Source of the DNA: a bacterium
GTDB taxonomy: Bacteria; RBG-13-66-14; B26-G2; WVWN01
Direction of reading: 5' to 3'
NCBI GenBank assembly: GCA_035529855.1
Contig: DATKVX010000007.1
Coordinates: 5,603-69,602 of the forward strand
Length of the DNA stretch: 64,000 bases
Part shown: piece by piece, positions 39,108-57,857 of the stretch
Layout of the letters: the number at the start of each line of letters is the position of its first letter
Numbering within the stretch: the stretch's first letter is position 1
Position numbers and translations under genes: made by a program
Notes under the pieces: generated by a model
Databases searched by the model: none
Told to the model about the DNA's origin: nothing
Seen by the model: the letters and a program-made list of their open reading frames with translations, nothing else

Positions 39108-39137
39108 TTGACAACTCTCTCCCCGCTGTATTAAAAT
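39108..39137 (+). promoter_or_regulatory. sigma70 promoter (TTGACA-18-TAAAAT) for the MBL-fold gene
   Basis: TTGACA at 39108-39113 and TAAAAT at 39132-39137. The ATG at 39146 is only about 9 nt downstream. Confidence 0.55.
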
Positions 39138-41120: not shown

Positions 41121-41134
41121 GGGTCGGTAAGTTT

Positions 41135-42238: not shown

Positions 42239-42264
42239 GAGTCGCCGTTGGAAAGGAGCTGCGG

Positions 42265-42645
42265 GTGAACCCGGAAGACCTGAGTTACACCGAGACGCAC
42301 GAGTGGGCGAAAGTCGACGGCAACGTCGTTACCATAGGCCTGACGGACCACGCTCAATCGGAATTGGGCGACATCGTGTATTTGGAGCTGCCGGAAGTCG
42401 GCGCCGACGTGGAGGCCGGAGGCGAATTCGGCGTCGTGGAATCCGTGAAGGCGGCGTCCGAGCTCTACGCGCCCGTTTCCGGAAAGGTCGTGAAAGTAAA
42501 CGGCGCCGCGACCCAGGAGCCCGCCCTGGTCAATCGCGATTGTTACGGCGAAGGGTGGCTCGTTAAAATCGAGTTGAAGGACCCCTCGGAAGTCGAAAAC
42601 CTCAAGACCGCGGCGGAATATAAAGAATTCATCGGAGGTCAATAA
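42265..42645 (+). CDS. gcvH: Glycine cleavage system H protein
   Basis: YTETHEWAK and the lipoyl-lysine motif VESVKAASELYAPVSG. Confidence 0.9.
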   Translation: MNPEDLSYTETHEWAKVDGNVVTIGLTDHAQSELGDIVYLELPEVGADVEAGGEFGVVESVKAASELYAPVSGKVVKVNGAATQEPALVNRDCYGEGWLVKIELKDPSEVENLKTAAEYKEFIGGQ

Positions 42646-42696
42646 TTTAGGGCGCGCCGCGCCGGCCGGCCGTCGGCTGGCCGCGCTTCCCGGCCG

Positions 42697-42725
42697 GCGA
42701 GGGGTTGCGGCCCCTCGCTTTATTT
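42697..42725 (+). terminator. GC hairpin plus T-rich tract between gcvH and gcvPA (possible partial terminator)
   Basis: GCGAGGGG-ttgcgg-CCCCTCGC followed by TTTATTT. Confidence 0.5.
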
Positions 42726-42758
42726 AAATACGGGCGCTCCCGTTTGAGGAGGACGTTA

Positions 42759-44111: not shown

Positions 44112-44145
44112 ATCGCCGAAAGGGCGCGGAAGTAATATTCGTGAA

Positions 44146-44640
44146 ATGAAAACCGCTACTATCGTAATGGCGGTAATCCTCGCGGCGCTAATCGGCGTCG
44201 CGATATGGCGGGGCGGCGGCTCGCTGCAGAAGGGGTTCACCTTCGGCGGCAAGACGTTTCTGACCACGCTGCCGCTTTTGGTTATCGCTTTCGCAATCGC
44301 GGGCCTGGTCCAGGTCCTGGTGCCGCGGGAGGTAGTCGCGAAGTGGCTCGGCGCCGGCGCCGGTTTTAAGGGGATCATGATCGCCACCGTGGCCGGGGCT
44401 TTTACGCCCGGCGGGCCGTACGTATCGTTTCCCATCGTCGCGTCGTTGTACAAGTCGGGGGCGTCGGTCGGGACCGTGGTGGCGTTCGTGACGGCGTGGT
44501 CGCTTTGGGCCGTGGCCCGGTTCCCGCTCGAGATGGGGCTTGTGGGCCCCAAGCTCGCGATAGCGCGGTTCCTTTCGACGTTAATCGTGCCGCCGCTTGC
44601 CGGCCTGTTCGCGCAGGCGGTTTTCGGCCGTTGGGTTTAA
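44146..44640 (+). CDS. Small polytopic permease-family membrane protein (ArsP/DUF318-like, tentative)
   Basis: 164 aa with about 4-5 TM segments, inserted between gcvPA and gcvPB. The family call is from memory of predicted-permease half-proteins. Confidence 0.4.
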   Translation: MKTATIVMAVILAALIGVAIWRGGGSLQKGFTFGGKTFLTTLPLLVIAFAIAGLVQVLVPREVVAKWLGAGAGFKGIMIATVAGAFTPGGPYVSFPIVASLYKSGASVGTVVAFVTAWSLWAVARFPLEMGLVGPKLAIARFLSTLIVPPLAGLFAQAVFGRWV

Positions 44641-44662
44641 CCGTTCTTTCCCGGAGCAGCTC

Positions 44663-46123
44663 ATGAACTACGAATACCGAAATATATTCGAGATACCGCC
44701 CGGCCGGGGTTTCGAGGCCGGCGCGGCGGATACCCCCGAGGTCGACCTCGGAGCGTTTTACCCGGACGAATTCGTACGCCGCGATTTCGGGCCGATGCGC
44801 GACGTGGCGGAGCCGGAGGTCGTGCGGCACTACACGCGGCTGGCCGCGATGAACTTCGGCGTCGACACCGGCTTCTATCCGCTCGGCTCGTGTACGATGA
44901 AGTACAACCCGAAGGTGAACGAGGATGTCGCGTTGCTTCCCGGGTTCGCGGCGCTTCACCCGTACGCGCCGGCCGGCGACGTGCAGGGCGCGCTGCAGCT
45001 CGCCTGCGATCTCGAGCGCTACCTCGTCGAGATATGCGGGATGAGCGCGTTCACGCTCGCGCCGGCGGCGGGCGCCCACGGCGAATTGGTGGGGATGTTG
45101 TTGACGCGGGCGTACCACCGCAAGCGGGGTGACGACGGCCGCAACGTAATGCTCATACCGGATTCCGCGCACGGCACCAACCCGGCCTCGGCCCGGATGG
45201 CGGGCTTCGACGTCGTCGCCGTCGCCTCGAGCGACGACGGCGTGATAGACCTCGGCGACCTCAAGGCGAAGCTGGACGAGCGCGTCGCCGGCATGATGAT
45301 AACCAACCCCAATACGTTGGGGTTATTCGAGCCCGACATCTTAAAGGTTGCCGAGGCCGTACACGGCGCCGGCGGCCTGTTGTACTACGACGGCGCCAAC
45401 TTAAACGCGCTCGTAGGCCGCGTCCGTCCGGGCGATATGGGGTTCGACATTTGCCACGTCAACCTTCATAAGACCTTCTCGACCCCTCACGGCGGCGGCG
45501 GCCCGGGCGCCGGTCCGGTGGGCGTTTGCAAAAGGCTCGCGGATTTCCTCCCGGTGCCGCGCGTCGTAAAGAAGCGGGGCAAGTACGCGCTCGACTACGA
45601 CTCGGCGGACTCCATAGGCCAAATCCGTTCATTCGTAGGTAACTTCGGCGTCCTCGTCAGGGCGTACGCGTACATACGGCACCTCGGCGCCGCCGGCCTG
45701 CGGGACGCTTCCGGCGCCGCGGTCCTGAACGCGAACTACGTCCGCGCGAAAGTGGCGAAGTTCCTCGAGGTCGCCGGCACCGCGCCTTGCATGCACGAAT
45801 TCGTAGCGTCGTCAGCCAGGTTCGGCCGCGGTTCGGCGGGGGATATCGACAAGGCGTTGATCGACGCCGGCTACCACCCGCCGACGACGTACTTCCCCCT
45901 CGTGGTCCCGGAGGCGTTGATGGTCGAGCCGACCGAGACCGAAACGAAGGAGACGCTGGACGCCTTCGCCGCGGCGCTTGAGAAAATCGTAGCCGACCTG
46001 ACGGCCGACGCGCACGCGTACGCCGACGCGCCTTTCAAGGCGCCGGTGCGCCGCCTGGACGAGGCGGGCGCGGCGCGTAACCCGATACTGACCCAAATGA
46101 TGGCCGAGGAGGGGGAGCCCTAG
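44663..46123 (+). CDS. gcvPB: Glycine dehydrogenase (decarboxylating) subunit 2
   Basis: ATG 44663. GSCTMKYNPK and the PLP site HVNLHKTFSTPHGGGGPG. Confidence 0.9.
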   Translation: MNYEYRNIFEIPPGRGFEAGAADTPEVDLGAFYPDEFVRRDFGPMRDVAEPEVVRHYTRLAAMNFGVDTGFYPLGSCTMKYNPKVNEDVALLPGFAALHPYAPAGDVQGALQLACDLERYLVEICGMSAFTLAPAAGAHGELVGMLLTRAYHRKRGDDGRNVMLIPDSAHGTNPASARMAGFDVVAVASSDDGVIDLGDLKAKLDERVAGMMITNPNTLGLFEPDILKVAEAVHGAGGLLYYDGANLNALVGRVRPGDMGFDICHVNLHKTFSTPHGGGGPGAGPVGVCKRLADFLPVPRVVKKRGKYALDYDSADSIGQIRSFVGNFGVLVRAYAYIRHLGAAGLRDASGAAVLNANYVRAKVAKFLEVAGTAPCMHEFVASSARFGRGSAGDIDKALIDAGYHPPTTYFPLVVPEALMVEPTETETKETLDAFAAALEKIVADLTADAHAYADAPFKAPVRRLDEAGAARNPILTQMMAEEGEP

Positions 46124-46128
46124 GGCGC

Positions 46129-46821
46129 GTGGCCGATTGGCGGCGTTACGAGCTGTTGGTAGAAGGCCCGGGCGGCGCGGCGGAGAACATGGCCCGCGAC
46201 GAAGCGCTACTGGCGGCGTATCGCGCGGGCGAGGCGCCTCCCGGTTGGCGGTTGTATGCGTGGCTCGAGCCGGCGGTGACGTACGGCCGCGGCCAACGGG
46301 CGCCGCACTGGGACGGCGTGGCGGCGGTTCCGCGGCTCAGCGGCGGCGGCTACGTGCCCCACGGCGCGGATTTCACGTACTGCGTCGTGCGCGAGCGGCG
46401 CCGGGGCTTCGATAACTACGAGGATATCGTCGCCGTGGTCGCGGCGGCGCTTAGGGAATTGGGCGTGGCTGCCTCCGTATGGCGGGGCGCGCCGGCGGGG
46501 CGGGCCGACCGGTGTTTCGCTTCCCTCGCGCCGTACGACATCCACGTCTGCGGCCGGAAGGTCGCCGGGTGCGCCCAACGGCGTTACAAGGATGCCGTAC
46601 TCCACCACGGCTCGATCGCCGCGGCGGCTCCGCCCGAAATATTACGCCGGCTGGGCCTTTGGGACGAGACGCGGACGGCGTCGCTGGCGGAACTTTTAGG
46701 AAGGCCGGTTGTTTTGGCGGAATTCGCCCGGGCGCTGGCCGCAGCTACGGGTATGAAACCGGCTTACGCCGGCGTCGGCAGCGCGCGCGGAGAAGCGGAG
46801 TTGCGTTGCGTAAAGGAATAA
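46129..46821 (+). CDS. Lipoate-protein ligase / octanoyltransferase family protein (catalytic domain only)
   Basis: ENMARDEALL..., RLSGGG and GRKVAGCAQRR...HHGS motifs of the BPL_LplA_LipB fold. Follows the gcv genes directly. Confidence 0.75.
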   Translation: MADWRRYELLVEGPGGAAENMARDEALLAAYRAGEAPPGWRLYAWLEPAVTYGRGQRAPHWDGVAAVPRLSGGGYVPHGADFTYCVVRERRRGFDNYEDIVAVVAAALRELGVAASVWRGAPAGRADRCFASLAPYDIHVCGRKVAGCAQRRYKDAVLHHGSIAAAAPPEILRRLGLWDETRTASLAELLGRPVVLAEFARALAAATGMKPAYAGVGSARGEAELRCVKE

Positions 46822-46823
46822 TT

Positions 46824-47738
46824 ATGAGAAAAGAAGTTATCGTAGTTTCGGCAGCCTTGGCGTTTTCGCTATGTGCCTTCGTCGCTTGCAAGGGCGGGCC
46901 CCCGGCCGGCGAATCGGAAGCGGTCGCTAGCGTGGGGGACGCGGTCCTCACGGCCGACGACCTCGACCGCCTCGACGAAGACCAGCATAAGGTTAAAATG
47001 CCCACGTATCTTACGAAGGAAGAACTGATGGAGGAGTGGATACGGAGCGAGTTGCTATACCAGCAGGCGCTCGAGGATGAAATTGATAAGGAAACGGTAT
47101 GCGCGTGGCGGTTGCGTAACAGCGCCAAGGGCGTGGTTATCCAACGCTTTTGGGAGATTAACATCTACGAAAAGTACGCCGACGTGAGCGACGAGGAAGC
47201 GCTGAAGTGGTACGAGGAGAACAAAGACGAGAAGTACCGCGCGAAGACCACCGGCGTCTGGCTGCGGCGTATCCTTTTAAATTCGAAGGAGGACGCCGAT
47301 AAAGTTATGCAGCGCCTCGAGGGCGGCGAAGATTTCGTAAAGATCGCGAGCACCGAATCGGTAACGCCCGAGAAATTGGAGGCGGGGAGCATGGGTTACC
47401 GTCGTATGGAAGACGTGAGCCCGGCATACCGCGCCGACGTCGCGAAGATGAAAAGGGGAGAAATCGCGGGGCCCTTCAAGCTCGCCAATTTCTACGTCAT
47501 AGTCAAGCTGGAGGACCGCGTCGACGCGGGCGGTTACCTGAAGCCGGTGGGCATCGGCATGGAAGCGCTGCGCGACCGGGCGAAAATAGCTCTGTGGCGG
47601 GAGACGGCCAACGGTATAGGTACGGACCTCGAAGCGGCCGCCGACATCGAGCGCCACCCGGAACGCATCCACGAGGAAGCCGTCGATATGGCTTTGGGCG
47701 AGGAGTATCGCAAAGGGGCGCCGGCCGAGGCGAAATAA
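46824..47738 (+). CDS. Lipoprotein peptidyl-prolyl isomerase (parvulin/PrsA-SurA-like)
   Basis: ATG 46824. Signal peptide with a lipobox-like FVAC and a PpiC-type domain (WLRRILL...GGEDFVKIA...GSMGY...GEIAGPF). Confidence 0.7.
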   Translation: MRKEVIVVSAALAFSLCAFVACKGGPPAGESEAVASVGDAVLTADDLDRLDEDQHKVKMPTYLTKEELMEEWIRSELLYQQALEDEIDKETVCAWRLRNSAKGVVIQRFWEINIYEKYADVSDEEALKWYEENKDEKYRAKTTGVWLRRILLNSKEDADKVMQRLEGGEDFVKIASTESVTPEKLEAGSMGYRRMEDVSPAYRADVAKMKRGEIAGPFKLANFYVIVKLEDRVDAGGYLKPVGIGMEALRDRAKIALWRETANGIGTDLEAAADIERHPERIHEEAVDMALGEEYRKGAPAEAK

Positions 47739-49217
47739 GTGGACCGGGACTTGGAATCGGTTCAGGAGGCGCGCGACAAAATCCGGGCCGGCCGGCGGGC
47801 GGCCGCGGCGTTCGCCACTTTCGACCAGGCCGCGACGGACCGCATCGTTGCGGCTATGGCCCGCGCCGCGGAGGGTGCCGCCGACGAGCTCGCGCGCCGG
47901 GCCGCGGCGGAAACCGGCTTCGGCGTCGTCGAGCATAAAACTTTAAAAAACCTCTTCGCCGCGCGCGACGTTTACCGATACATTAAAGATTTAAAGACCT
48001 GCGACGTAATCGCCGAGGACCCCGCCCGAGGTATCGTCGAAATCGCGGTTCCCGTCGGCCTTATAGCCGGCGTAACGCCCGTCACGAATCCCACTTCCAC
48101 CATTATCTATAAGGCCCTTATCTCGCTGAAAGCCCGCAACGCCGTGGTCTTCTCGCCGCACCCGGGGGCGCTCGAGTGCTCGCTGGAGGCGGCGCGCTTG
48201 ATGGCCCAGGCCGCGGTTTCGGCCGGCGCGCCGGAGGGCGTCATAGGTTGTTTGACCCAACCCACGGCCGAAGCCGCGCGCGAGATAATGAGCCATCCCG
48301 ACGTGGACTTAATACTCGCGACCGGCGGGATGGCTATGGTGCGGGCGGCCTATTCTTCCGGGAAGCCCGCGTACGGCGTCGGCCCGGGTAACGTACCGGC
48401 GTACGTCGACCGCAGCGCCGACGTCGCGCACGCCGTGTCGTGCATCGTCGAGTCGAAGACCTTCGACAACGGCGTGATCTGCTCGTCGGAGCAAGCGGTG
48501 GTGTGCGACGCGCCGGCCCGCTCGGCCGCGGTCCGGGAGTTCGAACGCGCCGGGTGCGTCTTCCTTACCGACGAACAGAAGGACGCGGTCGCCGCGGTGC
48601 TCGACGACAACGGCAAGCTCAACAACGCCGTCGTGGGGCAACCGGCGGCGCGCGTCGCCGCGATGGCGGGGTTGGACGTGCCGGCCGACGCGAAGATTCT
48701 TATAGGTTTCGAGGACCGCGTGGGCCGCGACGTGCCGTTCTCCTGGGAAAAAATTTCGCCCGTGCTCGCGTGGTACGACGTCCCGGATTGGGTGAAGGGG
48801 TGCGAGCGCTGCCTGGATATCCTGGCCAACGGCGGCATGGGCCATACGCTGGCCGTCCACGCGCGGGACGAGCAGGTCATCCGCGAGTTCGGCCTCCGCA
48901 AGCCGGTGTTCCGCGTCGTCGTCAACACGCCCGCTTCGCAGGGCGCTATAGGCTTGACTACCAACCTGGCGCCCGCGCTGACGCTGGGCTGCGGGACCCT
49001 CGGCGGCAACATCACGTCCGACAACATCACGCCGATGCACCTGCTGCATATAAAGAGGGTGGCTTCCGGCCGACCCCGGGAGGGAATCGAACCGAACGGG
49101 TTAACCTCTCCCGGCGCGGCGCAGAGCGCGGGCAAACCCGCCGCGGCCGCCGACCCGAACCTTGTCGAGCGCGTGGTCGAAGAAGTCCTGCGCGAGTTGG
49201 AGCGGGGGGGAAGCTAA
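47739..49217 (+). CDS. CoA-acylating aldehyde dehydrogenase (EutE/PduP-like), BMC-associated
   Basis: VTPVTNPTST, catalytic FDNGVICSSEQ and GxG motifs. About 50 aa of C-terminal extension end in an amphipathic helix, LVERVVEEVLRELE. Confidence 0.85.
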   Translation: MDRDLESVQEARDKIRAGRRAAAAFATFDQAATDRIVAAMARAAEGAADELARRAAAETGFGVVEHKTLKNLFAARDVYRYIKDLKTCDVIAEDPARGIVEIAVPVGLIAGVTPVTNPTSTIIYKALISLKARNAVVFSPHPGALECSLEAARLMAQAAVSAGAPEGVIGCLTQPTAEAAREIMSHPDVDLILATGGMAMVRAAYSSGKPAYGVGPGNVPAYVDRSADVAHAVSCIVESKTFDNGVICSSEQAVVCDAPARSAAVREFERAGCVFLTDEQKDAVAAVLDDNGKLNNAVVGQPAARVAAMAGLDVPADAKILIGFEDRVGRDVPFSWEKISPVLAWYDVPDWVKGCERCLDILANGGMGHTLAVHARDEQVIREFGLRKPVFRVVVNTPASQGAIGLTTNLAPALTLGCGTLGGNITSDNITPMHLLHIKRVASGRPREGIEPNGLTSPGAAQSAGKPAAAADPNLVERVVEEVLRELERGGS

Positions 49218-49718
49218 GTGGTCCTCGCGGTTCGGCGTTTGGTCAACGCGTTTCGGCGGCGGCCGCTGGATTTGCATATTTTCTGCCTAATCCTTTTCGT
49301 GGTGGGCGCGGTTTTCGTATTCGGTTATCAGTTCAAGGTATTCTGGGACGTTGTAATAATGGACCGTACGCCGCTGGAGGGGACGCCCGTATTTCAAGCG
49401 TTGACGGGGATGACCCTCCTGACCGACCTGCTGTGGTCTCCGTTTCTGGTCGCGGCCGCCGTCGGCATCTGGGCCTATCGCGACTGGGGACGGCGCTTGG
49501 GGTTTATAGTCGGCGGCATTTTGGCGTATATGGGGATGCAGGGATTGTTATTCTTCCCTCTCGCGCGGCGGTTCGGCGTAGACGCCGTCGAGGATTTTAC
49601 GAGGTATTACGATTTTACGGCCTATATGGCATATTATACGATTTACGCCGTAGTGGGTTTTACGATGATTTTTTATTTATGGTTTCGAAAGGTGCAGTTC
49701 CGCGAGATACTGGATTAA
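49218..49718 (+). CDS. Integral membrane protein of unknown function (about 4 TM)
   Basis: GTG 49218 directly abuts the AldDh stop codon. 166 aa, aromatic-rich TM segments. I recognise no family. Confidence 0.5.
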   Translation: MVLAVRRLVNAFRRRPLDLHIFCLILFVVGAVFVFGYQFKVFWDVVIMDRTPLEGTPVFQALTGMTLLTDLLWSPFLVAAAVGIWAYRDWGRRLGFIVGGILAYMGMQGLLFFPLARRFGVDAVEDFTRYYDFTAYMAYYTIYAVVGFTMIFYLWFRKVQFREILD

Positions 49719-49781
49719 GAGGTCTTAATAATTCGGTGAACGTGGGCAACCTATCTTTACCTCGACGCGAAAGGAGCGAGG

Positions 49782-50087
49782 ATGCCTACTAGGACGGAGA
49801 TGGCGCTGGGGATGATCGAGACCCGGGGCGTAGTGGCGGCGATCGAGGCCGCGGATGCGATGTTGAAGGCCGCGAACGTGCGGCTTATGGATAAGGTTCG
49901 CGTCGGCGGCGGCCTGGTGAGCGTGATGGTACGGGGCGAAACCGGGGCCGTGAAGGCCGCGACCGAAGCGGGCGCCGCGGCCGCCGCGAAGATCGGCGAG
50001 CTTGTCTCGGTTCACGTAATCCCTCGTCCCGACGACGCCGTGGAGTTTATATTGCCGGAGGAAGTCGGGCCGGCTAAGAAGGCTTAA
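49782..50087 (+). CDS. BMC-H shell protein (PduA/EutM/CcmK family, single Pfam00936-type domain)
   Basis: [28 protein letters not shown]...[19 protein letters not shown]...VHVIPRP. AAAGGAG lies upstream. Confidence 0.9.
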
Positions 50088-50103
50088 CCCGAGGTAAACG
50101 TCC

Positions 50104-50934
50104 ATGGCCGCCGACGGTCAAGAGGCTTTGGTCCGGGCGGCGACTTCGGCGGTTTTGGCTCGATTGCGGGCCGACGCCGTCCGAACGTTTGAGGCGCGCG
50201 TGGGGGTTTCGGGCCGCCACGTGCACTTGACGCCCGGGGACCTGGCGACGCTGTTCGGCCCGGGCGCCGAACTCTCCGTACGTGCGCCTCTCGTCCAGCC
50301 CGGTCAATTCAGCGCCGACCAGTTCGTCGCGGTCGTGGGGCCGTGCGCTTCCATCCCCCACGTCCGCGTCGTAGGGCCCGCGCGTCCGGAGACGGTGGTG
50401 GAGCTGCTGTATAGCGACCTGGAAACGCTCGGCCTGGGCGGCGACGTACGCGCCGGCGAACGCTTCGCCGTCGTTTTGGCCGGGCCGGCGAGTGTCGTCC
50501 GCCTGCCGGAGGGAGGCGTAGTTGCGCGGCGCCATTTGCACGCGGCGCCCGCCGACGCCGAACGTTATGGCCTTGCCGACGGCGGCAACGTCTCGGCCGC
50601 GGTGGGCGCGCCGGGACGGCGCGTTACCTTCGGCGACGTTTTGGTAAGGGTTGGCGAAAATGCCGCGCTCGAGCTCCACGTCGACCGGGACGAGGCCAAC
50701 GCCTGCAGCGCCCGCACCGGCGACGTCGCGACGATAGTAGTTGGAGGCGCGCCAACGGCGAGGCCCGCGGGCGGCACGTCTTCGCGCCGGCCTACGCGCC
50801 CGTTGATAACGGAAGAGGACGTAGTCGAGGCCTACCGCGCGGGGACGGTCCCGTCGTTATCCGGAGCGATTCTAACGCCGTACGCCCGGGACGCGGTGCG
50901 GAAATACTTCCCGGAGTTGCTTAAAAGTTCATAG
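50104..50934 (+). CDS. pduL: Phosphotransacylase PduL with N-terminal helix and C-terminal extension
   Basis: Duplicated motifs VGVSGRHVHLTPGD and VARRHLHAAP, and ELHVDRDEANA, colinear with Salmonella PduL as recalled. Confidence 0.85.
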   Translation: MAADGQEALVRAATSAVLARLRADAVRTFEARVGVSGRHVHLTPGDLATLFGPGAELSVRAPLVQPGQFSADQFVAVVGPCASIPHVRVVGPARPETVVELLYSDLETLGLGGDVRAGERFAVVLAGPASVVRLPEGGVVARRHLHAAPADAERYGLADGGNVSAAVGAPGRRVTFGDVLVRVGENAALELHVDRDEANACSARTGDVATIVVGGAPTARPAGGTSSRRPTRPLITEEDVVEAYRAGTVPSLSGAILTPYARDAVRKYFPELLKSS

Positions 50935-50945
50935 TAAGTTATAAT
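50917..50945 (+). promoter_or_regulatory. Candidate internal promoter (TTGCTT-17-TATAAT) at the pduL 3' end
   Basis: TTGCTT at 50917-50922, a 17-nt spacer and a perfect TATAAT at 50940-50945. Followed by a 110-nt gap before the BMC-P gene. Confidence 0.45.
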
Positions 50946-51055
50946 TAACGAATGGCGGGAAATTCCGCCGATGTATAGCCGTCCGAAGAAGGTATTCGCG
51001 GGCCGCGGCTCCCGCGTCGATGCGTACGTCGCTGCGCAATCGGGGTAACGATGAT

Positions 51056-51328
51056 ATGATGCGTATCGCGGAAGTTGTAGGCAGCGTTTGGGCGACGCGA
51101 AAGGTCGAGAGCGTACGCGCGTTAAAAATGCTGCTCGTACGGCCGCTTGACGGAGACCTTAAACGGACGACCGAGCTGTGGGTAGCCGCCGACGTCGTGG
51201 ACGCGGGCGTAGGCGATCGCGTCTTAGTGGCCGTGGGTCGGGCGGCGCGGCTCGCCGTCGGCGACGACGCCGCGGCCGTCTCGGCGGCCGTCGTGGGCGT
51301 CGTAGATTCGGTGGACGTGCCGGCTTAA
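51056..51328 (+). CDS. BMC-P pentameric vertex protein (EutN/CcmL family)
   Basis: MMRIAEVVGSVWATRK...LLVRPLD...VAADVVDAGVGDRVLV. ATG at 51056 or 51059. Confidence 0.85.
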   Translation: MMRIAEVVGSVWATRKVESVRALKMLLVRPLDGDLKRTTELWVAADVVDAGVGDRVLVAVGRAARLAVGDDAAAVSAAVVGVVDSVDVPA

Positions 51329-51336
51329 AACTTGAG

Positions 51337-52644
51337 ATGGGCCTCGTCGAGACGGTAAGAGAAGCGGGCGTAGTGGGGGCGGGCGGCGCCGGCTTTCCCG
51401 CCCACGTGAAGTATAAATGCGGGGCGGACGTTCTCATTATCAACGGCGCGGAGTGCGAGCCGCTTTCCCATAAAGACGAAGCCATCCTGAAGGCCCGGGC
51501 CGCGGATATCGTAGTGGGCGCCGCGGCGCTCCGCGACGAGCTCGGCGCGGGCGAAGTAATACTCGCGGTCAAGGAAGCGCGCGCCCGCGAGCTCGCCGGC
51601 CTGTACGGCGGCGTGAAGGTCCATCCTCTCGCGGAGACCTATCCCGCGGGCGACGAGGCCGTCCTGGTGTACGACGTTACCGGCCGGCGGGTGCCGGCGG
51701 CGGGCGTTCCGCCCGACGTCGGCGTCGTGGTATCGAACGCCGAGACGGTGCTCAACGTCGCCCGGGCGACGCGCGGTAAGCGCGCGGAGACCACCTGGCT
51801 GGCCGTGGGCGGCGCGGTAGCGGAACCTTTCGTCGCGGAAGTACCGCTGGGAACGCCGGCCTCTTTTTTACTAGAGGAGGCCGGGGGCGCGACGGCGCCC
51901 GATTACGTCGTCTTCGACGGCGGCCCTATGATGGGGGAAGAGATAGACGCCGAGCAATACGGTGCGAAGCTGACGACCGGCCTTATTATGGTTTTGCCGA
52001 CGGACCATCCCGTCGTCGGGCGGGCGCGCCTGCCGCTGGAGCACGTCAGGACCGTCGCCGGCAGCGCCTGTACGCAGTGCCGCGACTGTACGGAGCTTTG
52101 CCCGCGGTACCTTCTGGGTTACGACGTTACGCCTCACCTCTCGATGCGGCGCTTCTTTACGTGGGGGGAGGAGGCCGAGCCCTCGTTCTTCGCGAACGCC
52201 GCGGGGTGTACCGGTTGCGGCCTGTGCGAGCTGTACGCGTGTCCGATGGCCATATCGCCGCGGCGGGTGCAGAACTACCTTCGCGGCCGGCTTCGCGACG
52301 CGGAGAAGGGTGAGGGGCTGGGGGAGGTCCACGCGGACCGCCCGGGCCGCAACGTACCGGCGAGCCGTTTGAAAAAGCGCATAGACGTGGCGGCGTACGA
52401 CCGGCCGGCGCCGGCACGCGAGCTGCGAGCCGAGCCGCGTCGCGTCGTACTAGACGTTACGCAGCCCTACGCCCCCGCGCCGGCCGTTCTCGTGAAGGAA
52501 GGGGACCGCGTCGAGGCCGGGCAAAAAATCGCGGCGCCGCCGGCGGGCGATGATTCGGGCGTGCCGGTATACGCCGGCGTGACGGGCCGGGTGGCGGCGG
52601 CCGATGCACATAGAGTAATAATAGACCGTACGCAGGCCGCGTAA
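51337..52644 (+). CDS. PduS-like / RnfC-like flavin and Fe-S oxidoreductase
   Basis: GVVGAGGAGFPAHVK, NGAECEP, and two Cys clusters CTQCRDCTELCP and CTGCGLCELYACP. The C-terminus has a barrel-sandwich-like segment (KEGDRVEAGQKIA). Confidence 0.75.
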   Translation: MGLVETVREAGVVGAGGAGFPAHVKYKCGADVLIINGAECEPLSHKDEAILKARAADIVVGAAALRDELGAGEVILAVKEARARELAGLYGGVKVHPLAETYPAGDEAVLVYDVTGRRVPAAGVPPDVGVVVSNAETVLNVARATRGKRAETTWLAVGGAVAEPFVAEVPLGTPASFLLEEAGGATAPDYVVFDGGPMMGEEIDAEQYGAKLTTGLIMVLPTDHPVVGRARLPLEHVRTVAGSACTQCRDCTELCPRYLLGYDVTPHLSMRRFFTWGEEAEPSFFANAAGCTGCGLCELYACPMAISPRRVQNYLRGRLRDAEKGEGLGEVHADRPGRNVPASRLKKRIDVAAYDRPAPARELRAEPRRVVLDVTQPYAPAPAVLVKEGDRVEAGQKIAAPPAGDDSGVPVYAGVTGRVAAADAHRVIIDRTQAA

Positions 52645-52672
52645 AGCGCCGGTGGCTAAGGAGATGTTTCCT

Positions 52673-53374
52673 ATGTGGAGGAAGACGGCCCTGCTAATCG
52701 CCGTGCTGGCCGCGGCCGCGGCGGCTTACGAAAAACCCGAGCTCGAGAAAGCGGACATCGACCCCGAAGACCTCGCGAGGTTCAAGGAAGCGTACACTTT
52801 CTATCTTGACGGCATCGGGTTCGAAAAAGAGGGGTCGTGGGTTTCGGCAAGCCAGGCCTACCGCAAGGCGGTCGAAATTTACCGTAATTACCCGGACGCT
52901 TTGTACGGCCTGGGCCGAATGGCGTTGCGGCTCGGCCGTTTGGACGAAGCGGAAGACGCGCTGCGCGAAGCGCTAACGTTGAAACCGGAATTGCATCAGG
53001 CGCATACCGAGTTGGGGAGCGTCCATTACCGGCGGGGCGATTACAACAAAGCGGCGTTGGAATATAAGGACGCCCTGAAGCACGACCCCGACGACGCCGT
53101 AACGCGCTACAATTTGGGGAACGCGTACCGTAATCTCGACAAGCCGAAGGACGCGCTCGAGGAATACGAAAAAGCGCTCAAGCGGGAACCGGACTACGTG
53201 GATTGCTACTACAATATGGCGCTGGCGTACGAGGACTTGGGTAAAGTCGAGGAAGCGATAGCGGCGTACGATAAATTCATAGAAATGGCGGGCGACGACC
53301 CGGACCAACAGGAATGGGTGAACCGGGCGAAGGAATACAAACAGAGTTTGAGAGAGGGAGAGAAGGGCGAGTAA
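52673..53374 (+). CDS. Exported TPR-repeat protein
   Basis: ATG 52673 lies 9 nt after AAGGAG (the track ORF starts at GTG 52652). Signal-like MWRKTALLIAVLAAAAAA, then about 5 TPR units (ALYGLGRMAL..., AHTELGSVHY..., TRYNLGNAYR..., CYYNMALAYE...). Confidence 0.75.
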   Translation: MWRKTALLIAVLAAAAAAYEKPELEKADIDPEDLARFKEAYTFYLDGIGFEKEGSWVSASQAYRKAVEIYRNYPDALYGLGRMALRLGRLDEAEDALREALTLKPELHQAHTELGSVHYRRGDYNKAALEYKDALKHDPDDAVTRYNLGNAYRNLDKPKDALEEYEKALKREPDYVDCYYNMALAYEDLGKVEEAIAAYDKFIEMAGDDPDQQEWVNRAKEYKQSLREGEKGE

Positions 53375-53932
53375 TTGGCGCCGCGCGAAGAGGCCATCGG
53401 TTTGGTAGAATTCTCGTCTATCGCCCGCGGCATCGAGGCGGTGGACGCGATGGTTAAGGAGGCCGAAGTGCGGCTCTTGGCATCGCGGACGTCGTGCTCC
53501 GGGAAATACATAGGGCTCGTCGCGGGCGCGGTGGCGGCGGTCAAATCGGCGGTCGCCGCCGGCAGAGAAATGGGCCGGGGGCATTACGTCGATGACCTCG
53601 TAATCCCCAACGTCCACGAGCAAGTGATGGCGGCCGCGGCCGGGACGGTGGTCGTACCCGAGAACGCCGCGTTGGGGGTCGTGGAGACGTTCTCTCTCGC
53701 CTCCTCGCTGTTGGCCGCGGACGCCGCGGTGAAGGCGGCGCCGGTCACGCTGGTCGAGGTCAGGCTTGGGACCGGCATCGGCGGCAAAGGTTTTACGACT
53801 ATGGTGGGAGAGACGGCGGCCGTCGCCGCGGCGGTGGCGGCGGGCGCCGCGGAAGCGGCCAGGCGCGGCCTGTTGGTCGCGACCGCCGTTATTCCGGCTC
53901 CCTATCAGGAAGTGCTGGACAAACTAATTTAA
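53375..53932 (+). CDS. BMC-T tandem-domain shell protein, PduT-like
   Basis: Two BMC domains in 185 aa (IGLVEFSSIARGIEAVDAM... and LGVVETFSLASSLLAADAAVKAA...). SRTSCSGKY aligns with the PduT SKTICPGKF segment that holds the [4Fe-4S] ligand Cys. Confidence 0.8.
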   Translation: MAPREEAIGLVEFSSIARGIEAVDAMVKEAEVRLLASRTSCSGKYIGLVAGAVAAVKSAVAAGREMGRGHYVDDLVIPNVHEQVMAAAAGTVVVPENAALGVVETFSLASSLLAADAAVKAAPVTLVEVRLGTGIGGKGFTTMVGETAAVAAAVAAGAAEAARRGLLVATAVIPAPYQEVLDKLI

Positions 53933-53951: not shown

Positions 53952-54239
53952 ATGGCACTTAAAGAGATAATAAACGTCAGCGGCAAACACCTCGGTTACT
54001 TCGAGGCGTGGTGTAAAGCGTGCGGCATATGCATCGCGCTGTGCCCCAAGCACGTCTTCGATACCGGCACCGACGGCAAGCCGATATTGGCGCGGCCGCA
54101 GGACTGCATAAACTGCGGCACGTGCGAGATAATGTGCCCCGATTTCGCCATCGGGTGGTACATGGACCCGCTGCACGACGAGGAGCTGAAGGAAGCGCAC
54201 AAGCGCGGCACCGAAGACGAGTGGGCCAAGCATAGATAA
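53952..54239 (+). CDS. 2-oxoacid:ferredoxin oxidoreductase delta (ferredoxin-like) subunit
   Basis: Two 4Fe-4S motifs, CKACGICIALCP and CINCGTCEIMCP. Confidence 0.8.
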   Translation: MALKEIINVSGKHLGYFEAWCKACGICIALCPKHVFDTGTDGKPILARPQDCINCGTCEIMCPDFAIGWYMDPLHDEELKEAHKRGTEDEWAKHR

Positions 54240-54293
54240 AGCCTTTCCCGTTTGGCGTATTCGTAAGCGACGAAGGAAGTGAAACTTATATAG

Positions 54294-55427
54294 ATGGTTT
54301 TGATGCAAGGCAACGAAGCGATTACCCGGGGAGCGCTCGACGCCGGCGTGCGCTTTTTCGCCGGTTACCCCATTACGCCTTCCACCGAAATAGCCGAGAT
54401 AATGTCGGTGGAGCTTCCGAAGGTGGGGGGGAAGTTCCTTCAGATGGAGGACGAGATCGGCTCGCTGGCCGCGGTCATCGGCGCGTCGCTCACCGGCGTG
54501 AAGGCGATGACGGCCACCAGCGGCCCCGGCTTCTCGCTTATGCAGGAGAACCTCGGCTACGCGTACATGACGGAAGTCCCGTGCCTGGTGGTCAACGTGA
54601 TGCGCGGCGGCCCGAGCACCGGCCTGCCCACTCATCCCTCCCAGGGCGACGTCATGCAGGCGCGGTGGGGCACCCACGGCGACCACCCGGCCATAGTGTT
54701 GGCGCCTTCGTCGGTCCTCGATTGCTACGTATTGACGGTGCGGGCGATCAACCTCGCCGAGCGGTTCCGCACGCCGGTAATACTCTTGCCCGACGAAGTC
54801 GTGGCGCACATGCGCGAAGACGTGACGCTGCCCAAAAAGGTCGACGTCGTGGACCGCGAGGCGCCCCACGTCCCGCCCGAGTGGTACTACCCGTACGACG
54901 ATTCCACCACCGACGTCGGGCCCCTCGCGCCCTTCGGCACCGGCTTCCGCTTCCACGTTACGGGCCTTACGCACGACCGCGCGGGCTTCGCCACTACGGT
55001 CCCGGCCGAAGTCGACCGCGCCATCCGCAACCTCAAACGCAAGATGGACCGGTTCCGGCTCGATATTATTCAGGTAGAACGAGTACACTTGACCGACGCC
55101 GAGGTGGTCGTGGCGGCCTACGGCATTTGCGCGCGGTCCGCCGAGGCCGCGGTATTGCAGGCTCGCGCCCAGGGCTACCGCGCCGGTTTCGTAAATTTAA
55201 AAACGATCTGGCCTTTCTGTTTTAAATTGATGCAGCGCGTCGCGGATACCGCGAAAGCCATCATCGTGCCCGAGTTGAACCTGGGGCAGCTCGTCCGCGA
55301 GTTCGAACGCGCGGTATGCGGCCGCACCCAGGTGGTGCCCATAAGCCGCGTGGACGGCGAGGCTATCACGCCGCGCCAGATCCTGGACGTGATCGCCGAG
55401 CTCGCCCGGCCGGGAGGAACAACCTAG
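54294..55427 (+). CDS. 2-oxoacid:ferredoxin oxidoreductase alpha subunit
   Basis: LMQGNEAITRGALDAGVRFFAGYPITPSTEI, the typical KorA/OorA N-terminus. Confidence 0.85.
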   Translation: MVLMQGNEAITRGALDAGVRFFAGYPITPSTEIAEIMSVELPKVGGKFLQMEDEIGSLAAVIGASLTGVKAMTATSGPGFSLMQENLGYAYMTEVPCLVVNVMRGGPSTGLPTHPSQGDVMQARWGTHGDHPAIVLAPSSVLDCYVLTVRAINLAERFRTPVILLPDEVVAHMREDVTLPKKVDVVDREAPHVPPEWYYPYDDSTTDVGPLAPFGTGFRFHVTGLTHDRAGFATTVPAEVDRAIRNLKRKMDRFRLDIIQVERVHLTDAEVVVAAYGICARSAEAAVLQARAQGYRAGFVNLKTIWPFCFKLMQRVADTAKAIIVPELNLGQLVREFERAVCGRTQVVPISRVDGEAITPRQILDVIAELARPGGTT

Positions 55428-56275
55428 TGGAGACAGCCCGCGAACTAAACCCTTCGGAGCTGATGCACGAGTACCTGCGTCAGAAGAAAAAGTTCCCGCA
55501 CATCTGGTGCTCGGGCTGCGGCATCGGTACTACCATGGGCGCCGTAATCCGCGCCATCGCCGACTGCGAGCTCGACCGCGACCGCGTCGTCATGGTTTCG
55601 GGCATAGGGTGTAGTTCCCGTATGCCCATATACGTCGACTTCAACACGCTGCATACTACGCACGGCCGGCCCATCGCGTTCGCCACCGGAATCAAGTTGG
55701 CTCGCCCCGAGTTGGAGGTAATCGTTATAACGGGCGACGGCGACGCCGCGGCCATCGGCGGGAATCATTTGATCCACGCCTGCCGCCGGAATATTAACCT
55801 GACGGTGGTTTGTATAAACAACAGCATCTACGGCATGACCGGGGGACAGGCATCGCCGACCACGCCCCAGGGCAGGGTCGCGTCCACCGCCCGCTACGGC
55901 GACTTCGAGCGGGCGTTCGACCTGTGCGACCTGACCGCCGGCGCCGGCGCGGCCTTCGTCGCGCGGGGCGCGGTGTACTACGCCCGCCAGCTCGAGAAAC
56001 TCGTCGCGCAGGCGATACGCAAGAAGGGCTTCGCCTTCGTCGAGGTCGTATCGCAGTGCCCGACGTATTACGGCCGGTTCAACAAGTTCAAATCGCCGGT
56101 GGAGATGTTATATTGGCAGCGCGATAACACGGTGAACGTCAAGGCCGTGGCCAAGATGAAACCGGAGGAGTTGGAAGGGAAATTGCTCACGGGTGTCCTG
56201 GCCGACCGCGAATACCCGGAGTTCACCGAATTGTACGATAAGTTGATAGCCGACCTCGCCGCGGGGAGGAAATGA
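55427..56275 (+). CDS. 2-oxoacid:ferredoxin oxidoreductase beta (TPP-binding) subunit
   Basis: GTG 55427 overlaps the alpha-subunit stop. WCSGCGIG, GIGCSSR and GDGD...IGGNH TPP motifs. Confidence 0.85.
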   Translation: METARELNPSELMHEYLRQKKKFPHIWCSGCGIGTTMGAVIRAIADCELDRDRVVMVSGIGCSSRMPIYVDFNTLHTTHGRPIAFATGIKLARPELEVIVITGDGDAAAIGGNHLIHACRRNINLTVVCINNSIYGMTGGQASPTTPQGRVASTARYGDFERAFDLCDLTAGAGAAFVARGAVYYARQLEKLVAQAIRKKGFAFVEVVSQCPTYYGRFNKFKSPVEMLYWQRDNTVNVKAVAKMKPEELEGKLLTGVLADREYPEFTELYDKLIADLAAGRK

Positions 56276-56844
56276 TGGTCGTAGTGAGATTTGCGGGCTA
56301 CGGCGGCCAGGGATTGCTGACGGCGGGTTTGATACTCGCAGACGCCGCCGCCGTGTACGATAAAAAGAAAGTCATCCAAACGCAGAGTTACGGCGCGGAG
56401 GCTCGGGGCGGCGCCAGCCGGTCGGACGTCATCATATCCGACGAGGACATCGTCTTCCCCAAGCCCGACCACCTCGACATCCTCGTGGCCATGAACCAGC
56501 TTTCGGTCGACAAGTACTCCTCGGCGTTGGCGGAAGGCGGTACGCTTATAGCGGACGCGACGTTCGTCACGACGGTGACGTTCCCCGACTTCTACCTCAT
56601 CCCGTTCACCGATATCGCCAGGGAGAAGTTGGGCCGGGAAATAGTGGCCAACGTCGTAGCGTTGGGCGCGCTGGTGGAACTCAAAGGCGTGGTTTCGAAG
56701 AAGGCCGCGGCCCGGGCGCTCGAGCAGCGGATACCCCAAGCGGCGTTGGACGTGAACCGTAAAGCTTTGGAAGAAGGTTTCAAGGCGGCCCGCAAAGCCG
56801 CGGCCGCCCGGGAAAAAGCGGTGGCCGATTACGATATTGTATAA
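56272..56844 (+). CDS. 2-oxoacid:ferredoxin oxidoreductase gamma subunit
   Basis: RFAGYGGQGLLTAG..., SYGAEARGG. The delta-alpha-beta-gamma order and subunit sizes mirror Helicobacter OorDABC. Confidence 0.8.
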   Translation: MMVVVRFAGYGGQGLLTAGLILADAAAVYDKKKVIQTQSYGAEARGGASRSDVIISDEDIVFPKPDHLDILVAMNQLSVDKYSSALAEGGTLIADATFVTTVTFPDFYLIPFTDIAREKLGREIVANVVALGALVELKGVVSKKAAARALEQRIPQAALDVNRKALEEGFKAARKAAAAREKAVADYDIV

Positions 56845-56856
56845 CGCGAGAGGTGT

Positions 56857-57261
56857 ATGGAAAAGACGCTCTTCATGGTAAAGCCGGATGCGGTGGCGCG
56901 CGGCCTGGTAGGCGAAATCGTCGCCGCTATGGAGCGCGAAGGTTTTATTATCGAGCGGCTCGAGCTGCAGCACTTCGAGCGCGCCAAGGCCGAAACCTTC
57001 TACGACGTGCACCGTGACAAGCCTTTTTTCGGAAGCTTAGTCGAGTACGTTACGTCGGGGCCGGTCGTCGCGATGGTCCTCGGCGGCGACGCCGCTATTA
57101 CCCGGGTGCGGGAGCTTATGGGCGCGACGGACCCGGCGCAGGCCGCCGCCGGCACCATACGGCGTAAGTACGGCGAGTCTATAGAACGCAACGCCGTCCA
57201 CGGCTCGGACAGTCCAACCTCGGCGGCGTACGAAATCGCCGTCGTCTTCGGAGCGCCGTGA
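56857..57261 (+). CDS. ndk: Nucleoside diphosphate kinase
   Basis: TLFMVKPDAV, GATDP and NAVHGSDS motifs. Confidence 0.9.
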   Translation: MEKTLFMVKPDAVARGLVGEIVAAMEREGFIIERLELQHFERAKAETFYDVHRDKPFFGSLVEYVTSGPVVAMVLGGDAAITRVRELMGATDPAQAAAGTIRRKYGESIERNAVHGSDSPTSAAYEIAVVFGAP

Positions 57262-57812
57262 GCGCGGCGGCGTCGCGTTGGAACGTCCCGAACGCGCTCA
57301 CGCTCGCGCGGCTGCCGCTGGCGGCGGTCGGCGCTTATTTCCTGTGGCGTAAAGAATTTATCGGCGTCGCGGCCGGCTTCCTGGTCGCCGCGGCCTTGAC
57401 CGATATCTTAGACGGCCTCGTCGCCCGGGCGATGGGCCAAATAACGGACTTCGGCAAGAAGCTCGACCCGGTGGTGGACAAGGCGGCCATCGCCGGCGTC
57501 GGCCTGATTCTGGCGTTGAAGTACGGCGTGCCGTGGTGGATCTTCGCCGCCGCGGTGGCGCGCGACGCAGCCATAATTATTTCGGCATCGCTCGTGATTT
57601 CCCGCCGGCGCGTCGTCATACCGGCGAATTTTTGGGGCAAGGCCGCGGCCGCGCTTATGGTTTGTTACGGCGTTGCCGTCGTGCTGTCCGCGGCGTGGTG
57701 GCTCACGACGCTGCTGTTGTGGCTCGTCTTGGCGGCGATAATAGTTTCGTCGGCGTCGTACGGATACGATTTCTACCGGGCTCTGGCCCGGAAGGGGCAA
57801 CCGTCGGCCTGA
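57258..57812 (+). CDS. pgsA: CDP-alcohol phosphatidyltransferase (PgsA-like)
   Basis: DILDGLVAR...G..LDPVVDK (the DG(x)2AR...G(x)3D(x)3D motif). GTGA overlap with ndk. Confidence 0.75.
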   Translation: MSAAASRWNVPNALTLARLPLAAVGAYFLWRKEFIGVAAGFLVAAALTDILDGLVARAMGQITDFGKKLDPVVDKAAIAGVGLILALKYGVPWWIFAAAVARDAAIIISASLVISRRRVVIPANFWGKAAAALMVCYGVAVVLSAAWWLTTLLLWLVLAAIIVSSASYGYDFYRALARKGQPSA

Positions 57813-57857
57813 ATCCCGGCCGGGATAACCGTTCATTTCAAGGAGTAGAGGTATCAG

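Follow-up and report, generated by a model that had tools for sequence, protein, structure and literature searches.

We analysed a 64,000-nt stretch of DNA from an uncultured Coatesbacteria-like bacterium (assembly GCA_035529855.1, contig DATKVX010000007.1, positions 5,603 to 69,602; hereafter the window), in which positions 47739-53932 hold a block of eight genes for a bacterial microcompartment (BMC), all on the + strand. Open reading frame (ORF) calls together with Pfam and NCBIfam models returned each of the eight genes that a first-pass annotation, made from the letters alone, had listed there, at the coordinates it gave: a CoA-acylating aldehyde dehydrogenase (AldDh), a protein with four transmembrane helices (4-TM protein), a BMC-H shell protein, PduL, a BMC-P shell protein, a PduS-like flavoprotein, an exported tetratricopeptide-repeat (TPR) protein and a PduT-like BMC-T shell protein. 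The gaps between neighbouring genes are 0-85 nt, and the identities of the components are assigned with high confidence (Table 1). BMC-H, tandem-domain BMC-T and BMC-P all score well above the model cut-offs, and the two core enzymes of a metabolosome are present, namely a PF00171 AldDh with an encapsulation peptide and PduL for CoA recycling. No alcohol dehydrogenase is encoded, and the PduS-like and PduT-like proteins are the candidates for NAD+ recycling.

The AldDh has its catalytic Cys within FDNGVICSSEQ and ends in a Pro/Ala/Gly-rich linker followed by an encapsulation-peptide helix at residues ~474-489 (NLVERVVEEVLRELER). The amphipathic moment of this helix is 2.42, the highest in the window, compared with 1.80 or less for the termini of other genes. 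No encapsulation-peptide-like terminus was found on the 2-oxoacid:ferredoxin oxidoreductase (Oor) subunits, the glycine cleavage (gcv) proteins, the aminotransferase or other gene products of the window, and the AldDh alone stands out. PduL, whose gene begins 16 nt after that for BMC-H, is made up of an N-terminal amphipathic helix (EALVRAATSAVLARL), a phosphotransacylase (PTAC) domain with its conserved His residues in the motifs RHVHL, RRHLH and ELHVDRDEANA, and a C-terminal domain of ~45 aa running 'LITEEDV...AILTPYARD', which matches no Pfam model. As a separate observation, this small domain, with the consensus 'L(I/T)ExDV...(I/L)ITPxA(R/K)D', recurs on the C-terminus of PduL, the N-terminus of EutT, the C-terminus of a flavoprotein and the C-terminus of AldDhs from Acidobacteria (window 50800-50934; 11865-12100 and 13300-13489 in comparison locus L033; 5750-5950 in L095; AldDh C-termini in L014-L051; comparison loci are referred to by L numbers throughout).

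BMC-H has the pore segment VGGGL and carries PRPD where PRPH is usual. BMC-P, the sole PF03319 protein of the window, is 75-95% identical in relatives, where the gene is called from MMRIAEV at 51056; in sister contigs the protein has 90 or 102 aa. For the PduS-like gene the true start is at 51337 rather than at 51178, where the longest ORF begins. Its product has a GAGGAGFP NADH/FMN site, two 4Fe-4S motifs of the CxxCxxCxxxCP type (CTQCRDCTELCP and CTGCGLCELYACP) and a C-terminal RnfC_N barrel, and its best matches in the Protein Data Bank (PDB) are RnfC structures. The best PDB matches of the BMC-T protein are 3NWG, 3PAC and 3N79 (PduT), and its pore residue Cys41, within TSCSGKY, aligns with the Cys of the top match, the PduT-like 3NWG. 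Published electron-conducting tiles have the pore motif CP(G/S)K, and PduS and PduT genes are usually adjacent (PMC11626177); the C-S-G-K of the window protein is a variant of that motif, and here the TPR gene separates the two genes.

Table 1. Genes and other features of the BMC region (positions are those of the window)
Feature	Position	Strand	Evidence and remarks
AldDh (CoA-acylating, EutE-like)	47739..49217	+	PF00171; TIGR02518 acetaldehyde dehydrogenase (acetylating), 610 bits vs cut-off 620
Orphan 166-aa multi-pass membrane protein (4-TM)	49218..49718	+	no Pfam/NCBIfam match; start abuts AldDh
BMC-H hexamer shell protein (EutM-like)	49782..50087	+	PF00936, 95 bits; EutM model, 114 bits
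PduL-type phosphotransacylase	50104..50934	+	PF06130, 165 bits, residues 33-203
BMC-P pentamer (vertex) protein	51056..51328 (longest ORF from 51020)	+	PF03319, 83 bits
PduS-like metabolosome NADH dehydrogenase (MNdh)	51337..52644	+	PF01512, PF10531 (SLBB), PF13534, PF13375 (RnfC_N)
Exported TPR protein	52652..53374	+	TPR families, at least 4 TPRs; Sec-type signal-like N-terminus
PduT-like tandem-domain BMC-T (BMC-T^SE)	53375..53932	+	two PF00936 domains; TIGR02526, 120 bits
Upstream partner: gcvT, gcvH, gcvPA, ArsP-like insert, gcvPB, lplA, PpiC-type lipoprotein	41135..47738	+	Pfam, NCBIfam
PpiC-type lipoprotein between lplA and AldDh	46824-47738	+	
OorDABC, NDK, CDP-alcohol phosphatidyltransferase, NfnAB-like	53952..60127	+	NCBIfam
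Sigma-70-like promoter match, TTGACA-18-TAAAAT, 11/12	39108..39137	+	consensus scan, pattern match only

The block is under purifying selection in all eight of its genes. Every ORF is intact and keeps the expected motifs, and dN/dS against the orthologues in L013, L093 and L092, computed over saturated dS, was 0.07-0.42 across all six block genes wherever it was computable, similar to that of the gcv and Oor neighbours. Values were 0.11-0.23 for AldDh, 0.07-0.18 for BMC-H and ~0.10 for the 4-TM protein, while the ~0.24 for the TPR gene comes from a single comparison, dS being too saturated in the other two of three. The first-pass annotation had allowed that the shell genes might prove to be pseudogenes; a pseudogene reading of the block is very unlikely.

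Two of the eight genes are inserts. For the 4-TM protein, which is confined to the window's own family, a word-indexed search gave only 25 clusters, each of hypothetical proteins and at least 64% identical; when a profile was run against 1.84 billion representatives, nothing beyond this cluster was a credible homologue; and its AlphaFold2 model, with four long helices and a pLDDT of 72, had no fold match when compared with the PDB by Foldseek. The slot is empty in L094 and L213, and in L092 it holds a membrane protein with pentapeptide repeats. The 4-TM protein is thus a lineage-specific insert outside the conserved module and not a core component. A 170-aa membrane protein beside PduL in L037 was considered as a homologue and rejected, since it is VanZ-like and the BLASTP match was not significant. 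The TPR gene has orthologues in the same slot in L093 (72% identity), L092 (45%) and L213, and the slot between PduS and BMC-T in L094 is taken by a CAP/YkwD protein. Because all of these proteins have hydrophobic, signal-like N-termini, the TPR protein is probably an envelope protein encoded inside the block and not lumenal cargo.

Further genes were noted inside the block in relatives. The pentapeptide-repeat protein of L092 has 618 aa with C-terminal hydrophobic segments (11530-13386), and a glyoxalase/VOC-family gene (14733-15209) lies between PduL and BMC-P in the same locus; both are absent from L213. In the sister metagenome-assembled genome (MAG) L097 (JAUWLW010000003.1) a gene for a 581-aa ATPase, defence-like from its sequence, occupies 14626-16371 between BMC-P and the PduS-like gene. 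The L097 insertion shows that the block tolerates foreign genes.

Beyond the window's own family, the closest AldDhs (47-61% identity) fall in three groups: pairs of BMC-H and AldDh genes in Acidobacteria, H-H-AldDh-PduL loci in Gemmatimonadota, and loci with the order AldDh-H-PduL-P-PduS-T found in the window. This third group consists of EUT2B-type ethanolamine utilisation (EUT) loci. In L033, from Dethiosulfatibacter aminovorans, the genes run EutA-EutB-EutC-EutL-AldDh-H-EutT-PduL-P-PduS-T, and in L215 they run (EutB)-EutC-EutL-BMC-AldDh-H-EutT::PduL-EutJ-flavoprotein-P-PduS-T-permease, with L095 organised alike; the AldDhs of L215 and L095 are 56-61% identical to that of the window. A neighbour-joining tree without bootstrap made the window AldDh clade sister to L095. 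BMC-H is 74-77% identical to its counterparts in EUT2B-type loci and the PduS-like protein 35-43%, the AldDh encapsulation peptide (LVERVVEEVLREL) has clear counterparts in the AldDhs of those loci, and the three-part architecture of PduL is found in L092, L094 and L037 as well as in the EUT2B locus L033. We have high confidence in the EUT2B kinship, and the block matches the back half of an EUT2B-type ethanolamine locus from which the Eut front end is missing. The first-pass annotation had not been able to assign the locus to a catalogued type. This stands insofar as the gcv-adjacent configuration matches no named type of the 2021 catalogue among those compared by their descriptions, and it falls insofar as the core is recognisable. 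The locus does cluster with a characterised type, which is half of what the annotation had said would refute its reading, the other half being a signature enzyme elsewhere in the genome; the signature enzyme of that type is absent from the annotation of the window. In the BMC-P tree of the catalogue, a Coatesbacteria protein is listed only as 'fragmented (sat) (omitted)' (PMC8217296).

We also examined how far the gene order extends in relatives. A 25-gene order, from a metallo-beta-lactamase (MBL)-fold hydrolase through Nfn, is shared by about ten species-level MAGs labelled Coatesbacteria, Zixiibacteriota or simply 'bacterium', including the complete chromosome CP070633.1; AldDhs of this family are 77-93% identical to that of the window. 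In L092, L096, L104 and L213, where the AldDh is 60-64% identical, the order is gcvT-H-PA-PB-lplA-PpiC-AldDh-...-H-PduL-...-P-PduS-TPR-T. In the Coatesbacteria MAG L094 (AldDh 54%) it is aminotransferase-gcvT-H-PA-PB-lplA-PpiC-AldDh-H-PduL-PduS-CAP-T. In these five loci the genes upstream of gcvT (in L094, of the aminotransferase) are unrelated to those of the window where the contig reaches that far, and all genes past BMC-T are unrelated. The new observation is that the module lies directly after gcvTHP-lplA-PpiC in at least three Coatesbacteria-like lineages, with AldDh identity down to 54%, and the conserved unit runs from gcvT, or the aminotransferase, to BMC-T.

The two neighbourhood ties proposed in the first-pass annotation therefore part ways: the conserved unit supports the link to glycine and removes the link to 2-oxoacids. 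It is only in the window's own family (L010, L013, L093, L097-L103) that BMC-T is followed by Oor and Nfn; unrelated genes replace them in L092, L094 and L213, and we have high confidence in the loss of this linkage in the deeper lineages. The aminotransferase, the third gene whose co-occurrence with the shell genes had been proposed as a check, precedes gcvT in the window family and in L094 and is absent from the L092 clade.

The edge of the module can be seen in a pair of close genomes. The Coatesbacteria bin3 chromosome (L105, CP070755.1) is 80.6% identical in nucleotide sequence to L092 over the segment that starts with gcvT and closes with the PpiC gene; homology goes no further, and no BMC genes follow the PpiC gene in L105. 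A scan with the L092 AldDh, pattern-limited and with an estimated power of ~90%, found only L104 as a close relative and did not recover the L105 genome, and the BMC module is probably absent from that genome altogether. AldDh to BMC-T is thus a discrete module that is gained or lost as a unit, with boundaries in which we have high confidence. Since L105 keeps gcv without a BMC, the gcv genes work without the module, which argues against the glycine cleavage proteins being dedicated cargo.

No enzyme that would generate the aldehyde was found near the block. A precomputed Pfam annotation covers ~886-62490 of the window. It contains no second shell locus and no B12 gene, and it likewise lacks EutB/C, a diol dehydratase, a glycyl radical enzyme, a class II or DeoC aldolase and an Fe-alcohol dehydrogenase, in agreement with what the first-pass annotation had reported of signature enzyme, alcohol dehydrogenase and B12 genes. 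The window has no third BMC-domain gene and no PF01923 gene, and hence neither an EutL-type BMC-T^sp nor EutT. EutB/EutC, present in comparison loci L033 and L215, and the reactivase EutA occur neither in the window nor in any of the Coatesbacteria-like loci examined, and no lyase, aldolase, glycyl radical enzyme or dehydratase that could serve as signature enzyme lies within 10 kb in the loci of relatives.

These absences have counterparts among known loci. According to the descriptions in the catalogue of Sutter et al. (2021, PMC8217296), a signature enzyme is not obvious in many metabolosome types (ACI, FRAG, HO, MIC2-7, MUF2-3), EUT2x resembles EUT2 but lacks EutABC, and EUT2B and EUT2D loci have the PduS/T pair and no alcohol dehydrogenase. 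The locus therefore falls in a recognised class of metabolosomes. A 2024 study (PMC11626177) identified PduS and PduT as an NADH dehydrogenase and an electron-conducting tile (MNdh/BMC-T^SE) that pass electrons from NADH through the shell, and 361 catalogued loci have PduS/T without an alcohol dehydrogenase. Because of these EUT2B/EUT2D descriptions and the study of MNdh/BMC-T^SE, both the missing alcohol dehydrogenase, which the first-pass annotation had remarked on, and the presence of a PduS without B12 genes have published answers.

We interpret the eight-gene block as a working aldehyde-oxidising metabolosome that derives from, or shares ancestry with, EUT2B loci and whose ethanolamine lyase front end was lost or never acquired, and we put the probability of this reading at about 0.6. 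By homology, the shell would consist of BMC-H tiles with one BMC-P vertex protein and a PduT-like trimer. The AldDh would be targeted inside by its C-terminal amphipathic peptide and PduL by its N-terminal helix. Judging from the chemistry of their families, the AldDh would convert a short aldehyde, most likely acetaldehyde, to acyl-CoA and NADH, and PduL would convert the acyl-CoA to acyl-phosphate and recycle CoA. Acetaldehyde is favoured because of the near-threshold TIGR02518 score and the EUT2 ancestry, and we hold it as the substrate with moderate confidence. NAD+ would be regenerated by the PduS-like flavoprotein, whose two 4Fe-4S clusters may hand electrons to a cluster held by the pore Cys of the PduT-like tile and from there to a cytosolic acceptor; that electron export is the only route of NAD+ recycling is likewise held with moderate confidence. 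The aldehyde generator would be encoded elsewhere and is probably B12-independent, because no EutA, EutT, EutL or cobalamin gene survives in any lineage examined. The position after gcv would reflect co-expression within an amino-acid catabolic array. The most economical link would be a substrate that gives both glycine and acetaldehyde, such as threonine or another beta-hydroxy amino acid cleaved by an aldolase; this is a guess, and our confidence in threonine as the source of both products is low.

Several points weigh against this interpretation. The enzyme that would produce the aldehyde was found neither in the annotated part of the window nor in the 10-kb flanks of the relatives, and no threonine aldolase, serine hydroxymethyltransferase or other candidate source lies within 10 kb in any locus examined. 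The AldDh falls short of the TIGR02518 cut-off, and acetaldehyde specificity is not guaranteed. The pore motif of the BMC-T protein departs from the published one, and a gene intervenes between PduS and PduT. Finally, the gene order next to gcv could have been inherited and mean nothing functionally: unrelated genes are found in this array too, and the close relative L105 keeps gcv in the absence of a BMC.

A split ethanolamine-utilisation BMC, with eutBC (and eutA, eutL and eutT) at a satellite locus and the block as its EUT2B core and shell half, is unlikely. It would fit with the finding that the nearest AldDh relatives outside Coatesbacteria come from genuine EUT2 loci with EutC and EutL and that gene order and encapsulation-peptide type are identical to those of EUT2B loci, and the catalogue's descriptions include separated EUT modules (EUT2K) and EutABC-less EUT2-like loci that co-occur with another EUT2 locus. 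However, not one of three deep lineages keeps an EutA, EutT, EutL, EutJ, EutQ, EutH or B12 gene, and no eut genes were found in the rest of the window or in the relatives' 10-kb flanks. A neighbouring APC-family amino-acid permease was considered as an ethanolamine permease and rejected, since its identity to the L095 permease, from an EUT2 locus, is only 26%.

A bolder version of our interpretation, improbable to a similar degree, is that the locus represents a new metabolosome type wired to glycine metabolism. An encapsulated, B12-independent enzyme encoded elsewhere would split a threonine-like substrate into acetaldehyde, which would go to acetyl-phosphate, and glycine, which would go to the co-expressed gcv system; a more radical variant is that a C1 or C2 aldehyde derived from glycine, formaldehyde or glyoxylate, would be both detoxified and harvested. 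In either case all reducing power would leave through PduS/PduT and not as an alcohol.

A still more direct coupling to glycine seems to us quite improbable. Here the aminotransferase would supply glyoxylate or glycolaldehyde, or formaldehyde would come from aminomethyl-H-protein, and AldDh and PduL would oxidise the aldehyde to acyl-CoA and acyl-phosphate. The gcvTHP-lplA genes do hold the position of the signature enzyme of EUT2B loci, upstream of AldDh, in every lineage examined that has the module at this site, and both the window family and L094 have an AspC-like aminotransferase gene ahead of gcvT. The pairing of an acyl-CoA synthetase with an acylating aldehyde dehydrogenase for formate-to-formaldehyde conversion is a theme of metabolic engineering. 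The abstract of PMC8511477 names only the acyl-CoA synthetase. Against such a coupling, the glycine cleavage proteins are of ordinary length and have no encapsulation-peptide-like termini, the gcv-lplA-PpiC segment of L105 shows that these genes are not BMC-dedicated, and the aminotransferase is missing from the L092 clade. Rfam scans of the window gave no riboswitch or shared regulatory element, with no such element at the gathering threshold over the whole window and none at E <= 1 for 38800-42900. Literature searches gave no precedent either: neither glycine cleavage nor threonine aldolase was tied to a natural BMC in any paper, and none described a Coatesbacteria BMC.

We consider it very improbable that the compartment is linked to 2-oxoacids, with OorDABC and the aminotransferase as the signature activity, as in BUF3, and Nfn taking the reducing equivalents. 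OorD starts 19 nt past BMC-T in an array that is co-directional throughout, and BUF3 loci are described as joining an aminotransferase and pyruvate:ferredoxin oxidoreductase to shell genes. However, unrelated genes take the place of Oor and Nfn outside the window's family, the Oor subunits align end to end with their family models without extensions (the C-terminal helix of OorA belongs to the normal domain), and an oxidoreductase of this kind yields acyl-CoA directly, so that the AldDh would be left without a role. BUF3, as described, has no AldDh, and its aminotransferase is PF00266, not PF00155. Least probable of all is that the block is what is left, decaying or silent, of an EUT locus that was acquired horizontally and has no current function: the missing signature enzyme, the foreign genes inside the block in L097 (ATPase) and L092 (pentapeptide-repeat and glyoxalase-family genes) and the absence of the module at the corresponding site in L105, a genome that the pattern-limited AldDh scan also missed, are set against eight intact ORFs with their motifs, low dN/dS over saturated dS and a module kept across lineages down to 54% AldDh identity.

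The neighbours of the block, as judged from Pfam and NCBIfam, are those named in the first-pass annotation: the gcv genes, lplA and an AspC-like aminotransferase (PF00155) just before gcvT on the upstream side, and Oor and NfnAB-like genes on the downstream side. Not named there were the PpiC-type lipoprotein, the ArsP-like permease, and NDK and CDP-alcohol phosphatidyltransferase between Oor and Nfn. All genes from ~39146 to past 63500 lie on the + strand and are spaced by -4 to 151 nt, and this co-directional array also holds NDK, a phospholipid synthase, a ComF-like gene and exported proteins that are plainly unrelated to the BMC. The promoter match of Table 1 lies just upstream of the first gene (MBL-fold hydrolase) of the 25-kb array. 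A divergent partner, a 12/12 match on the - strand at 39066-39038, was noted beside it, and the pair lies between an amino-acid permease/Usp gene and the MBL-fold hydrolase gene.

Several observations concern the gcv cluster itself. Within 41135-46821 it comprises T, H, PA, PB and lplA, and no gene for the L-protein (dihydrolipoamide dehydrogenase) was found anywhere in the window. LplA is short, with 230 aa and the catalytic domain only. A gene for a half-size ArsP_1/SaoE-like permease of 157-164 aa lies between gcvPA and gcvPB (window 44146-44640, + strand); it is kept in most of the window's family at 69-92% identity, L009 and L010 having no match. Relatives have other genes between gcvPA and gcvPB, namely a toxin-antitoxin pair in L213 and restriction-modification and TnsA-like genes in L096, and the site resembles a hot spot for insertions within the gcv operon. 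Of the terminator-like hairpins in the region, the strongest is at 42696-42729 on the + strand, between gcvH and gcvPA, which are 113 nt apart; it has a 10-bp stem with 7 GC pairs and a T-rich tail. This hairpin could act as an attenuator, and it has no Rfam match.

The window as a whole has a G+C content of 63%, and the rest of it carries housekeeping genes. At 164-5951 on the - strand a PatA_N-domain protein, a small Arf/Ras-like GTPase, a Roadblock/LC7 protein and a 1092-aa AAA_16/nSTAND NTPase are encoded together, a cluster that resembles an MglA/MglB-like polarity or signalling module. At 21747-24853, also on the - strand, three consecutive ORFs of ~320 aa without a Pfam match, which may be paralogues, are flanked on one side by ABC-transporter genes (MacB/FtsX, ABC_tran, ABC2_membrane) and on the other by two DUF6064 genes. 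A single tRNA gene at 13856-13927 (+ strand) is the only Rfam match in the window.

Metabolosomes without a recognisable signature enzyme are an acknowledged gap in the catalogue, and each testable substrate hypothesis widens the known chemistry of BMCs. With one H, one P, one T^SE, AldDh, PduL and MNdh, each in single copy, the locus gives a minimal set of parts from a little-studied candidate phylum, and it would be a clear case in nature of a metabolosome that depends on the PduS/PduT wire alone for NAD+ recycling. The conserved glycine cleavage neighbour narrows the search for the substrate, and the natural presence/absence pair of close genomes allows comparative inference. Were the genome to carry eutBC at another site, the locus would be no more than an ordinary split EUT locus; should a non-Eut aldehyde generator with an encapsulation peptide be present, its interest rises.

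Among named types without a signature enzyme, EUT2x, MUF1-3, MIC and FRAG7 resemble the window locus in having an AldDh, with or without PTAC, and shell genes with no aldehyde-generating enzyme in the locus. By the catalogue's descriptions none of them is linked to gcv, unlike the window module, and each differs in other ways as well. EUT2x, with EUT2C as its closest type, occurs only in Bacillales and usually lies beside another EUT2 locus. FRAG7, from Hydrogenedentes, likewise brings together H, a PduS-T pair, AldDh and PTAC; its AldDh has an N-terminal encapsulation peptide, it includes a PF02441 flavoprotein and its BMC-P triplet is at a second site, whereas the window has a C-terminal peptide, no flavoprotein and a single BMC-P within the locus. 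MUF2, MUF3 and MIC4 have a class II aldolase (PF00596) and N-terminal encapsulation peptides, and MUF2 and MIC4 a BMC-P triplet, none of which is found in the window. MUF1 is PDU1D-like with a PduB-type tile.

The satellite AldDh loci of ACI (Acidobacteria) and the H-H-AldDh-PduL loci of Gemmatimonadota have AldDhs that are 47-56% identical to that of the window and carry a C-terminal encapsulation peptide. The Acidobacteria AldDhs end in the same ~45-aa 'ITPxARD' domain that is found on the window PduL, probably the '~50 aa domain of unknown function' of the catalogue. The main ACI loci differ, as described there, in having a class II aldolase (PF00596), a hydroxyacid dehydrogenase and a BMC-P triplet; the window has no PF00596 and one PF03319 gene. 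BUF3 loci, by their description, combine the PF00266 aminotransferase with a deamidase, POR domains and a CoA-binding protein with N-terminal extensions, and BMC-T^dp; the window differs in its AldDh, its PF00155 aminotransferase, its Oor without extensions and its lack of BMC-T^dp.

With the MNdh/BMC-T^SE module (PMC11626177) the candidate pair of the window shares an RnfC-like flavoprotein that is circularly permuted and has an FMN/NADH site together with two 4Fe-4S motifs, a tandem-BMC tile with a pore Cys, and co-occurrence with AldDh in the absence of an alcohol dehydrogenase. It differs in having C-S-G-K instead of CP(G/S)K, in both the window and L092 clades, and in the intervening gene for an exported protein. 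The closest likeness is to EUT2B and EUT2D. The order AldDh-H-PduL-P-PduS-PduT, the C-terminal encapsulation peptide of AldDh, PduS/T without alcohol dehydrogenase, and a PduL with an N-terminal helix and a C-terminal 'ITPxARD' domain are common to both, at identities of 47-61% for AldDh, 74-77% for BMC-H and 41-51% for BMC-T. The window locus is without EutA, EutB, EutC, EutL, EutT, EutJ, the flavoprotein and the permease, and is peculiar in its exported TPR gene between PduS and PduT, its orphan membrane gene between AldDh and BMC-H, its position after gcvTHP-lplA-PpiC and its candidate-phylum host. It is best described as an EUT2B-like core without a signature enzyme in a Coatesbacteria-specific, gcv-adjacent configuration, that is, as a variant of known metabolosomes and not a new kind.

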